A DNA stretch of 64,000 bases, taken from NCBI RefSeq assembly GCF_002854065.1, contig NZ_CP024147.1; one strand, 5' to 3'. Positions 6,692 to 9,427 of the stretch are shown one piece after another (within the stretch, counting starts at the first letter, position 1; every line of letters begins with the position of its first letter). The position numbers and the translations under genes are program-made. Source of the DNA: Escherichia coli. Its GTDB lineage: Bacteria > Pseudomonadota > Gammaproteobacteria > Enterobacterales > Enterobacteriaceae. A model generated the notes under the pieces. That model worked only from the letters and a program-made list of their open reading frames with translations, did no database searches and was not told where the DNA came from.

Positions 6692-6821
6692 GGGCAAATC
6701 CATTTACCTACTGCGACTACCGCAATAATTAACATATCATCAATAACCTGATAAACAAGACGAATGAATCGCCACAGGTTTAATAGACACCTCAGAGTCA
6801 TTTAAGATGACTTAAAGAGAG

Positions 6822-7079
6822 GTGCCCATGAGCGGTAAGCGTTATCCCGAAGAGTTTAAAATTGAAGCAGTCAAACAGGTTGTTGATCGCGGTTATTCTG
6901 TTGCCAGCGTTGCAACACGTCTCGATATCACCACCCACAGCCTTTACTCCTGGATAAAGAAGTACGGTCCGGATTCTTCCACTAATAAAGAACAGTCAGA
7001 TGCTCAGGCCGAGATCCGCCGTCTCCAGAAAGAGCTGAAGCGGGTTACCGACGAACGGGACATATTAAAAAAAGCCGTT
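6822..7079 (+). pseudogene. IS3-family transposase orfA, 3' end interrupted by IS30
   Basis: Helix-turn-helix/leucine-zipper-like OrfA (MSGKRYPEEFKIEAVKQVVDRGYSVASVATRLDITTHSLYSWIKKYG...LQKELKRVTDERDILKKA). The reading frame then runs into the IS30 terminal inverted repeat. Confidence 0.6.
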
Positions 7080-8300
7080 GTAGATTCAATTGGTCAACGC
7101 AACAGTTATGTGAAAACATGGGGTTGCAGAGGTTTTTTGAATGAGACGAACATTTACAGCAGAGGAAAAAGCCTCTGTTTTTGAACTATGGAAGAACGGA
7201 ACAGGCTTCAGTGAAATAGCGAATATCCTGGGTTCAAAACCCGGAACGATCTTCACTATGTTAAGGGATACTGGCGGCATAAAACCCCATGAGCGTAAGC
7301 GGGCTGTAGCTCACCTGACACTGTCTGAGCGCGAGGAGATACGAGCTGGTTTGTCAGCCAAAATGAGCATTCGTGCGATAGCTACTGCGCTGAATCGCAG
7401 TCCTTCGACGATCTCACGTGAAGTTCAGCGTAATCGGGGCAGACGCTATTACAAAGCTGTTGATGCTAATAACCGAGCCAACAGAATGGCGAAAAGGCCA
7501 AAACCGTGCTTACTGGATCAAAATTTACCATTGCGAAAGCTTGTTCTGGAAAAGCTGGAGATGAAATGGTCTCCAGAGCAAATATCAGGATGGTTAAGGC
7601 GAACAAAACCACGTCAAAAAACGCTGCGAATATCACCTGAGACAATTTATAAAACGCTGTACTTTCGTAGCCGTGAAGCGCTACACCACCTGAATATACA
7701 GCATCTGCGACGGTCGCATAGCCTTCGCCATGGCAGGCGTCATACCCGCAAAGGCGAAAGAGGTACGATTAACATAGTGAACGGAACACCAATTCACGAA
7801 CGTTCCCGAAATATCGATAACAGACGCTCTCTGGGGCATTGGGAGGGCGATTTAGTCTTAGGTACAAAAAACTCTCATATAGCCACACTTGTAGACCGAA
7901 AATCACGTTATACGATCATCCTTAGACTCAGGGGCAAAGATTCTGTCTCAGTAAATCAGGCTCTTACCGACAAATTCCTGAGTTTACCGTCAGAACTCAG
8001 AAAATCACTGACATGGGACAGAGGAATGGAACTGGCCAGACATCTAGAATTTACTGTCAGCACCGGCGTTAAAGTTTACTTCTGCGATCCTCAGAGTCCT
8101 TGGCAGCGGGGAACAAATGAGAACACAAATGGGCTAATTCGGCAGTACTTTCCTAAAAAGACATGTCTTGCCCAATATACTCAACATGAACTAGATCTGG
8201 TTGCTGCTCAGCTAAACAACAGACCGAGAAAGACACTGAAGTTCAAAACACCGAAAGAGATAATTGAAAGGGGTGTTGCATTGACAGATTGAATCTACAA
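7080..8300 (+). mobile_element. IS30 insertion sequence (about 1.22 kb) inserted into the IS3-family element
   Basis: Left end TGTAGATTCAATTGGTCAACGCAACAG and inverted right end ...TTGCATTGACAGATTGAATCTACA. Encodes the 383-aa IS30 transposase. Exact terminal base is uncertain by 1-2 nt. Confidence 0.85.
7141..8292 (+). CDS. insI: IS30 transposase
   Basis: 383 aa with an N-terminal HTH region and DDE region (..HWEGDLVLG.., ..VYFCDPQSPWQRGTNENTNGLIRQYFPK..), recognised as the IS30 transposase. Confidence 0.9.
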   Translation: MRRTFTAEEKASVFELWKNGTGFSEIANILGSKPGTIFTMLRDTGGIKPHERKRAVAHLTLSEREEIRAGLSAKMSIRAIATALNRSPSTISREVQRNRGRRYYKAVDANNRANRMAKRPKPCLLDQNLPLRKLVLEKLEMKWSPEQISGWLRRTKPRQKTLRISPETIYKTLYFRSREALHHLNIQHLRRSHSLRHGRRHTRKGERGTINIVNGTPIHERSRNIDNRRSLGHWEGDLVLGTKNSHIATLVDRKSRYTIILRLRGKDSVSVNQALTDKFLSLPSELRKSLTWDRGMELARHLEFTVSTGVKVYFCDPQSPWQRGTNENTNGLIRQYFPKKTCLAQYTQHELDLVAAQLNNRPRKTLKFKTPKEIIERGVALTD

Positions 8301-8367
8301 CCGCGCTCTTGATGTCAGACTCCCTGAACAGTTCTCGATAATCGGGAAACTCAGAGCGCATTATCCT

Positions 8368-9207
8368 GTGGTCACACTCTGCCATGTGTTCGGGGTTCAT
8401 CGCAGCAGCTACAGATACTGGAAAAACCGTCCTGAAAAACCAGACGGCAGACGGGCTGTATTACGCAGTCAGGTACTTGAGCTACATGGCATCAGCCACG
8501 GTTCGGCCGGAGCAAGAAGCATCGCCACAATGGCAACCCGGAGAGGCTACCAGATGGGACGCTGGCTTGCTGGCAGGCTCATGAAAGAGCTGGGGCTGGT
8601 CAGCTGTCAGCAGCCGACTCACCGGTATAAACGTGGTGGTCATGAACATGTTGCTATCCCTAACTACCTTGAAAGGCAGTTCGCCGTGACCGAGCCAAAT
8701 CAGGTGTGGTGCGGTGATGTGACCTATATCTGGACGGGTAAGCGCTGGGCGTACCTCGCCGTTGTTCTCGACCTGTTCGCAAGAAAACCAGTGGGCTGGG
8801 CCATGTCGTTCTCGCCGGACAGCAGGCTCACCATGAAAGCGCTGGAAATGGCATGGGAAACCCGTGGTAAGCCCGGCGGGGTGATGTTCCACAGCGATCA
8901 GGGCAGTCATTATACGAGCAGGCAGTTCCGGCAGTTATTGTGGCGATACCAGATCAGACAGGGTATGAGCCGGCGCGGAAACTGCAGGGATAACAGCCCA
9001 ATGGAACGCTTCTTCAGGAGTCTGAAGAACGAATGGATGCCGGTGGTGGGTTACGTAAGCTTCAGCGAGGCAGCTCACGCCATAACGGACTATATCGTTG
9101 GATATTACAGCGCACTAAGACCGCACGAATATAACAGTGGGTTACCCCCAAACGAATCGGAAAATCGATACTGGAAAAACTCTAACTCGGTGGCCAGTTT
9201 TTGTTGA
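8368..9207 (+). CDS. IS3-family transposase orfB (DDE integrase domain), separated from its orfA by IS30 and probably non-functional
   Basis: 279 aa with IS3-family OrfB hallmarks (..[35 protein letters not shown].., ..[10 protein letters not shown].., ..[15 protein letters not shown]..). Confidence 0.7.
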
Positions 9208-9427
9208 CCACTTCATGTCGTTGAACTGCATAATACTGGCCCAAGCACCGCAACCAGTCTTGCTGCGCTTATCGCTTTATGTTCGATATTGCTGGCAAAA
9301 CCAGTACAGGAACAGATGGTGGTGTTGGGCAGTATGACGCTTGGTGGAGTAATTAACCCGGTACGCCCTGCAGCATCCGGAATGCAGCGCCATTATGCGC
9401 ATCATCGACTGAATGGAGAGAAGCACA

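Follow-up and report, generated by a model that had tools for sequence, protein, structure and literature searches.

IS30 transposes by a copy-out-paste-in mechanism that duplicates 2 bp of its target and prefers nearly palindromic hot spots, and it generates deletions, inversions, and fusions or cointegrates through IR-IR junctions aimed at hot spots (PMC9333248). In Escherichia coli K-12, IS911 has been described as interrupted by IS30A (PMC9333248). This IS911A::IS30A nest (insN/insI1/insO, in the CP4-6 prophage) is a simple insertion, with IS911 sequence on either side and an unbroken AC duplication. In E. coli C and YZB902, IS30 lies in an ISEhe3-like element whose own orfB region follows on the right, and the 2-bp duplication is kept; the whole 2452-bp nest of YZB902 bears both ISEhe3-like ends. 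Two further K-12 copies have other surroundings. IS30D (KpLE2) has the left part of IS911 on one side and the left part of IS600 on the other, while the truncated IS30B (near yagB) abuts the same ISEhe3-like left fragment (ykgN) that is found in the locus studied here. These two copies are precedents for IS30-joined chimeras. For IS30 hot spots, Olasz et al. are said to have put forward a symmetric 24-bp consensus in 1998.

The locus lies in a 64,000-nucleotide stretch of E. coli DNA, here called the window, and we put at about 90% the probability that it arose from two separate IS30 insertions, which were joined through IS30 into a chimera. With K-12 IS911A::IS30A it shares the IS30 orientation, the dinucleotide, and an identical right junction (TCTACA followed directly by ACCGCGCTCTTG), but the left flank in the window is the left end of another element and the duplication is lost. 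In E. coli C and YZB902 the left element is also that of the window, IS30 is oriented and placed alike, and the left junctions differ in their last base alone (GC there, GT in the window); the right flank and the kept duplication set those two apart. Like IS30D, the window copy joins the halves of two different IS3-family elements. IS30D and IS30B nevertheless have other partners, orientations, and truncations than the window copy, and in K-12 it is the IRR of IS30 that adjoins the ISEhe3-like fragment, in the window the IRL. The locus is an ordinary, already known kind of IS pile-up composed of four elements. An initial annotation had counted three IS families; there are two, since the IS3 family takes in IS911 and the left fragment as well as IS2.

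IS30 occupies positions 7079 to 8299 on the plus strand (1221 bp, TGTAGA...TCTACA), as defined by profile and by inspection of the ends; the initial annotation was right in calling it an intact IS30 and one base off in placing it at 7080 to 8300. Both 26-bp terminal inverted repeats, IRL (7079 to 7104) and IRR (8274 to 8299), were found on the plus strand (TGTAGATTCAATTGGTCAACGCAACA and TGTTGCATTGACAGATTGAATCTACA). The transposase gene (7141 to 8292, plus strand) encodes 383 aa that score 278 bits against NF033563 (cutoff 80), and the element is 99.5-99.8% identical to IS30 copies of K-12, E. coli C, and BL21. The copy looks intact. Reading of the junctions revealed no 2-bp target duplication of IS30, which is preceded by GT and followed by AC, and comparison of junctions showed each dinucleotide to match one side of a different parental insertion. 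Judged from its sequence, the element is IS30, but the copy in the window is not a simple insertion.

To the left of IS30, 314 bp (6765 to 7078, plus strand) remain from the left end of an IS3-family element of 1229 bp, which we call ISEhe3-like. Its left inverted repeat (TGAATCGCCAC..., plus strand) begins at 6765, which is also where BLAST matches in unrelated contexts start. On the same strand, orfA begins at 6828 and an A7 slippery run lies at 7067 to 7073. The fragment ends in the dinucleotide GT, adjoining IS30, and this GT is native: an uninterrupted ISEhe3-like allele reads ...GCCGTGGCGTAC. All 314 positions are identical to an intact 1229-bp copy, which has its own 3-bp duplication (CAT), and the element's own ends match at 29 of 40 positions. 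A GenBank depositor has named an OrfA identical to that of the intact copy 'ISEhe3, transposase orfA', and the window fragment encodes the first 84 residues of this protein. A variant with 91.7% identity over its left 313 bp bears the name ISEc14, and PGAP, like plasmid BLAST, labels the ISEhe3-like element only as 'IS3 family transposase'. ISEhe3 is therefore used here as a depositor label and IS911 as a PGAP label, neither name coming from an ISfinder reference. A copy on pMRE162 was rejected as a candidate for the intact left element, since the IS30 site is taken up there by an inverted IS30 remnant of 139 bp. Having neither orfB nor a right end, the left fragment is dead.

To the right of IS30 are the last 916 bp of IS911 (8300 to 9215, plus strand), assigned by identity and by the PGAP label 'IS911 family'. 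The first bases of this fragment are the AC of the IS911::IS30 duplication. It contains the orfA tail (8300 to 8341, 13 protein letters), an open orfB frame (8302 to 9207), and the right inverted repeat, ...GTTGACCACTTCA, which ends at 9215, all on the plus strand. The fragment is identical at 912 of 916 positions (99.6%) to an intact 1248-bp copy in BLR(DE3), which PGAP assigns to the IS911 family, and has 95.4% identity to ISEc52; IS911's own ends match at 25 of 40 positions. Without orfA and a left end, this fragment too is dead. Beyond it lies a fragment of a Lon-like S16 protease (BrxL-like) gene (9216 to 9364, plus strand), recognized by matches to brxL and antirestriction genes, which is the original flank of the IS911 copy. 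It is cut off at about 9364 by a deletion that has brought it up against an antirestriction gene at the 3' end of the latter. The order IS30, IS911, S16 protease up to 9364 is common to about 31 genomes.

IS30 thus has an IS3-family fragment on either side, and the break falls in the orfA/orfB frameshift windows of these fragments. The initial annotation had placed the break in this way and had further taken the locus for a nested insertion into one element, a part of its account that does not hold. A single IS3-family element hit once by IS30, with the two fragments as its halves and its ends eroded, would account for fragments that are both of the IS3 family, that together measure about 1230 bp, and that carry orfA in the left-hand and orfB in the right-hand part, and the same left/right combination occurs uninterrupted in 9-11 genomes at 94-98% identity. 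Such an element would need to read ...GCCGT-ACCGCGCTC... at the IS30 site, or to show a 2-bp repeat fitting both junctions, whereas IS30 has no duplication there and the right junction carries IS911-specific bases that are missing from the uninterrupted hybrids. The left fragment is 100% ISEhe3-like and the right one 99.6% IS911, with no blastn match of the latter to the ISEhe3-like element; likewise, blastn found no DNA similarity between full-length ISEhe3-like and IS911 elements in their right-hand (orfB) part, and their proteins are 31% (OrfA) and 36% (OrfB) identical. In the intact ISEhe3-like element, what follows the left fragment is an orfB region of quite another kind, and that element has inverted repeats that match and a duplication of 3 bp. 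The outer ends of the composite (6765 and 9215) are not inverted repeats of each other, matching at 16 of 40 positions, and no 3-bp duplication was found around it, GAA being present on one flank and TGT on the other. The uninterrupted hybrids were also considered as the ancestral single element and rejected, since their junction reads AAAAAAAGCCGCTCTTG, without the IS911-specific ACCGCG, and they themselves have no flanking duplication. We regard a single split element as very improbable.

The comparison with intact copies shows that the flanks of IS30 are halves of two different elements, which is the outcome that the initial annotation had itself named as speaking against a nested insertion. 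The missing IS30 duplication, the unpaired outer ends, and the absence of a flanking duplication are explained by an IS30-joined chimera. Erosion of the ends had been suggested earlier, but both outer ends are complete and fail to pair because they come from different elements, so the missing inverted repeats are a signature of the chimera. The chief use of this result is in annotation, where the two 'transposase' pseudogenes beside IS30 are not to be treated as a single disrupted element. The uninterrupted hybrids, with ISEhe3 on the left and an IS911-like right part, are better read as derived from the chimera than as ancestral to it.

The reconstructed IS30 target sites are ATATTAAAAAAAGCC-GT-GGCGTACTTCG in the ISEhe3-like element and ATATTAAAAAAGGCT-AC-CGCGCTCTTGA in IS911, and the homologous dinucleotide also holds an IS30 in IS600 and in an IS911 relative that is 72%-diverged. 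The frameshift window of these IS911-group elements (IS911, IS600, ISEhe3-like, and the 72%-diverged relative) is probably a conserved natural IS30 hot spot. It lies at one exact dinucleotide, and IS30 therefore recurrently knocks out IS911-group elements. Both the recurrent targeting of IS3-family frameshift windows and the shuffling of halves are directly observed, and resident IS30 copies act as portable joints that shuffle the halves of different IS3-family elements. Such targeting of one dinucleotide across several frameshift windows is a tidy natural example of a hot spot and not a new principle. Later loss of IS30 would leave uninterrupted hybrids, and in those of strains 181.1 and ATCC 8739 the ISEhe3 orfA is in frame with the IS911 orfB. 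It is conceivable, if somewhat doubtful, that this route yields new functional chimeric transposases.

We read the locus as a scar left by four or more transpositions and by a single joining event. One IS30 would have entered the orfA/orfB frameshift window of an ISEhe3-like element at ...AAAAAAAGCC-GT-GGCG, and another copy, independently, the homologous dinucleotide of IS911 at ...AAAAAAGGCT-AC-CGCG, in an IS911 copy that would have sat inside the BrxL-like protease gene. The two IS30 copies would then have merged to give ISEhe3-left, IS30, and IS911-right, with loss of the intervening DNA, whether the two copies recombined homologously or the IS30 transposase made a deletion or fusion, and the chimera would have been inherited with the genomic island by the roughly 36 sequenced strains that carry it. 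We infer this order of events and the mechanism of joining. The identity of each piece and all junctions were observed directly, as were both parental simple insertions: ISEhe3-like::IS30 in E. coli C and YZB902, where the position is that of the window and GC is duplicated, and IS911A::IS30A with the AC duplication in K-12. The ISEhe3-like::IS30 junction was predicted ahead of the search and matched at 100% identity, occurring in 113 genomes. Of the two junctions of the window, the left one is present in 543 genomes and the right one in 979, and the complete chimera in about 36 complete genomes, including ATCC 8739, BE2-5 and, in part, BL21 derivatives. IS30 is multicopy and longer than short reads, and mis-joins of such repeats do occur; since these roughly 36 genomes were assembled independently and share the structure and its junctions, the chance that collapsed or mis-joined IS30 repeats produced the locus is negligible.

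That the IS30 transposase, and not homologous recombination, made the chimera has, in our estimate, somewhat less than even odds. In this route the IS911-resident IS30, or an IR-IR junction with a second copy, would attack the ISEhe3-like hot spot on the same molecule, and the ensuing deletion or inversion would fuse IRL to ISEhe3-left while IRR would keep its IS911 flank. Deletions, inversions, and cointegrates that arise in this manner at hot spots are documented (PMC9333248), and the left junction of the window falls exactly at the hot-spot dinucleotide. On pMRE162 the identical ISEhe3-left...GT end is joined to the opposite end of IS30 (IRR), and in K-12 a close allele (...GC) is likewise joined to IRR. 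Because homologous recombination cannot give IRR-joined ends, transposase-made junctions at the ISEhe3-like site are recurrent; K-12 IS30D, between IS911-left and IS600-left, is a further product of the inversion type. However, the 113 genomes with simple ISEhe3-like::IS30 insertions hold IS30 in the right orientation, so RecA recombination between two resident copies would be equally able to form the chimera, and the window has no sequence feature that discriminates between the two routes. No recombination breakpoint was apparent in the SNP pattern of 9 IS30 copies with different flanks, compared at about 12 variable sites.

The initial annotation had also proposed that IS copies may have driven the decay of the genomic island. 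Relatives of the island have differing deletions that end inside IS30 or IS911, and the IS copies have clearly shaped this decay. The locus illustrates how E. coli islands are rearranged through the target preference of IS30 together with multicopy homology.

Upstream of the chimera, IS2 occupies positions 5372 to 6702 on the plus strand (1331 bp), with two overlapping ORFs recognized by NCBIfam profiles. These are orfA (5463 to 5828; TnpA, NF006928, 276 bits, cutoff 229) and orfB (5786 to 6691; TnpB, NF006918, 728 bits, cutoff 597), both on the plus strand, as is a frameshift motif, A6G, at about 5780. In a 100%-identical record from strain CUWW06, PGAP labels the element 'IS3-like element IS2 family transposase, programmed frameshift'. 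IS2 looks intact, and the perfect 5-bp TTTAC duplication that had been reported around it was confirmed by reading of the sequence, with copies at 5367 to 5371 and 6703 to 6707. The site is 57 bp upstream of the chimera (62 bp with the TTTAC copy included). In its length, its 5-bp duplication, and its frameshift motif the copy is like other simple insertions of IS2 (IS3 family, IS2 group), and it differs from them in nothing unusual. Its target is the remnant of a RelE-family toxin pseudogene (6708 to 6764, minus strand), which resumes across IS2 at about 5319 to 5371; these coordinates were mapped by alignment, and the RelE label is the one that PGAP gives to the site where it is uninterrupted, in Rosetta2(DE3) and BE2-5.

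The initial annotation had considered the IS2 hop recent and had suggested looking for the empty site in related genomes. Rosetta2(DE3), which is BL21-derived, and BE2-5 have this empty site with a single TTTAC. The filled site is present in only 1 of 5,426 complete E. coli genomes, that of strain CUWW06, and the hop is for this reason recent. IS2 is thus a genuine, recent insertion, which would have entered the RelE-toxin pseudogene remnant in the lineage of the window after the chimera had formed, duplicating TTTAC, and which is useful as a very recent lineage marker, common only to CUWW06 among the complete genomes. CUWW06 differs from the window in carrying an extra IS1.

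The sequences on either side of the IS30 copy come from different IS3-family elements, rather than from one such element split by IS30 as the initial annotation had it. A blastn comparison of window 8300..9215 with the 1229-bp ISEhe3-like element returned no match at all, 6765..7078 is not related in DNA sequence to the left part of IS911 (MKKRNFSAEF...), and the proteins of the two elements are 36% (OrfB) and 31% (OrfA) identical. The outer ends of the composite match each other at 16 of 40 positions, and the bases at these two ends (GAA versus TGT) form no flanking duplication. 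The lack of a blastn match, the dissimilar ends and the missing duplication led us to reject a single split element, and fragments from different elements were what the initial annotation itself had named as its refutation; the correct description is an ISEhe3-like left end, IS30, and an IS911 right part. The whole is an ordinary IS nest of a previously known kind, the pieces of which PGAP already annotates.

The left end of the ISEhe3-like fragment can be set at 6765 (TGAATCGCCACAGG...) because BLAST matches start there in a wide range of unrelated settings (K-12, plasmids, other islands), and 6708..6764 is a RelE remnant outside the IS. Strain 19KM2326N contains an intact 1229-bp element, with its own ends matching at 29 of 40 positions and a 3-bp duplication (CAT), and window 6765..7078 is identical to its first 314 bp, final GT included. 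Uninterrupted ISEhe3-like copies read ...GCCGTGGCGTAC, and the GT allele is native to this element. The name ISEhe3 is provisional: "ISEhe3, transposase orfA" is the GenBank depositor label for the OrfA of the 19KM2326N element, of which the window fragment encodes the first 84 residues, and a variant with a 91.7% identical left 313 bp has its OrfA labeled ISEc14. On the other side, window 8300..9215 is identical at 912 of 916 positions to the right part of an intact 1248-bp copy in BLR(DE3), annotated by PGAP as "IS911 family", while ISEc52 is 95.4% identical to this interval. Compared with intact IS911, orfB has two substitutions, at 8943 and 8967, that turn QSMSRRGNCWDN into other residues and alter the conserved NCWDN stretch, which is consistent with a decaying relic.

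The IS30 between these fragments has 26-bp inverted repeats and encodes a 383-aa transposase; its presence had been recognized correctly, but its true ends, 7079..8299 (1221 bp), lie one base further left than annotated. A simple IS30 insertion is normally flanked by a 2-bp duplication (PMC9333248); the bases beside the window copy, GT to its left and AC to its right, show none. At window 7859 (IS30 position 781) this copy has T where those of K-12, BL21, E. coli C, YZB902, Z142-3, and VG48B2 have C, changing GDLVSG to GDLVLG a few residues past the D of the transposase HWEGD motif, and F719 and SW07164 share the change.

Simple insertions that could supply each junction exist in other genomes. 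In K-12 IS911A::IS30A, IS30 is flanked by ...AAAAAAGGCTAC and ACCGCGCTCTTG with an AC duplication, and its right junction is identical to that of the window. From the natural ISEhe3-like element, we predicted that a simple insertion would have a right junction consisting of the IS30 end, GC, and GGCGTACTTCGC..., and this was found at 100% identity in 113 genomes. Such insertions are present in E. coli C and YZB902, where IS30 lies between ...AAAAAAAGCCGC and GCGGCGTAC, is oriented as it is in the window, and is flanked by duplicated GC. Since both parental insertions exist and GT is native to the ISEhe3-like element, the window combines the left junction of one simple insertion with the right junction of another.

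At least 4 IS3-family elements carry IS30 at one homologous dinucleotide, which lies a few bases downstream of the A6-7G slippery run: IS911, a 72%-diverged IS911 relative (AC duplication), IS600, and the ISEhe3-like element. This recurrent targeting of the frameshift window fits the documented preference of IS30 for nearly palindromic hot spots (PMC9333248); a 24-bp symmetric IS30 consensus is cited in PMC12445084. Two resident IS30 copies could have joined the halves by recombining homologously, or the IS30 transposase could have mediated a deletion or fusion. Either route would give the window structure, and SNPs within IS30 do not discriminate between them. In pMRE162, the opposite IS30 end adjoins this ISEhe3-left...GT end, and near yagB in K-12 it adjoins a close allele. 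Homologous recombination cannot create such joints, so transposase-made junctions at the ISEhe3-left site are certainly recurrent. K-12 IS30D (in the KpLE2 region, L020 2691-4436) is an analogous chimera of the inversion type: IS911-left abuts its IRR end, its IRL end adjoins a fragment of IS600 orfA (IS600-left) in inverted orientation, and the break in each partner falls at the same AC dinucleotide of the frameshift window. Together with pMRE162 and yagB, this makes chimeric IS30 flanks an established pattern.

In 9 to 11 genomes, including strain 181.1 (L006 1501-2724) and ATCC 8739 (L007 1501-2718), ISEhe3-left runs straight into an IS911-like right part with no IS30 between them. The hybrid junction AAAAAAAGCCGCTCTTG maps exactly onto the IS30 site, and loss of 1228 bp from the chimera, across 2-3 bp of microhomology, could produce it. 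Because this junction is missing the IS911-specific ACCGCG and the hybrids' outer ends have no flanking duplication, we infer that they were not the ancestor of the chimera; judged by their junctions, they are probably scars of IS30 loss from it. PGAP records a "programmed frameshift" in the strain 181.1 hybrid, yet its orfA and orfB make up a single uninterrupted ORF.

The left junction occurs in 543 complete genomes, the right junction in 979, and the complete chimera in about 36, a figure obtained by subtracting up to 11 hybrids without IS30 from 47 places. IS30, IS911-right, and the S16 (BrxL-like) protease up to window 9364 occur in succession in ~31 genomes, including ATCC 8739 and BE2-5. 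The surroundings are a decayed genomic island, with an autotransporter gene upstream and JAB/RadC, DUF987, and YeeU-antitoxin genes downstream. The proposal that the IS cluster accompanies island decay is supported because relatives carry different deletions ending within IS30 or IS911-right: in BL21 derivatives, IS30 breaks off at its position 1099 and abuts cbtA, and in F719 and SW07164, IS911-right breaks off at 753 bp and abuts an autotransporter fragment. The window's protease fragment is cut off at ~9364, where the tail of an antirestriction gene follows. Window 9211-9420 holds 154 bp of the BrxL-like (BREX Lon-related protease) gene, 330 bp in relatives, and the last ~59 bp of the antirestriction gene, just before JAB/RadC; the endpoints of this deletion are not at IS ends.

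Read from the sequence, the adjoining IS2 spans 5372..6702 (1331 bp, TAGACTGG...GCAAATCCA) between copies of TTTAC at 5367-5371 and 6703-6707, and its TnpA and TnpB ORFs score 276 and 728 bits against curated cutoffs of 229 and 597. In BE2-5 and the BL21 derivative Rosetta2(DE3), this island has an empty site with one TTTAC and uninterrupted ...GTTCACGTTTACCTACTGCGAC..., inside a RelE-family toxin pseudogene remnant. Among 5,426 complete E. coli genomes, the filled site was found in CUWW06 only. The paired TTTAC, the empty site, and this restricted distribution confirm the recent hop with intact duplication that had been proposed for IS2. In SW07164 (L013 1974-3555), the ISEhe3-like left fragment is itself interrupted by a different IS2-like copy that points the opposite way, so IS2-type elements have inserted into this short stretch at least twice.

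The CUWW06 chromosome (NZ_CP182139.1) is 100% identical to window 5200..9400 and 99.8% identical to window 1..10762. It has an extra 768-bp IS1, absent from the window, at 10754-10762, with those 9 bp duplicated; the window therefore comes from a strain closely related to CUWW06 but distinct from it. Upstream of the autotransporter gene, window 314-714 is a degraded IS relic that shares 71% identity with the 3' portion of IS2 orfB; its CUWW06 counterpart is annotated by PGAP as a pseudogene, "integrase core domain", containing an internal stop.
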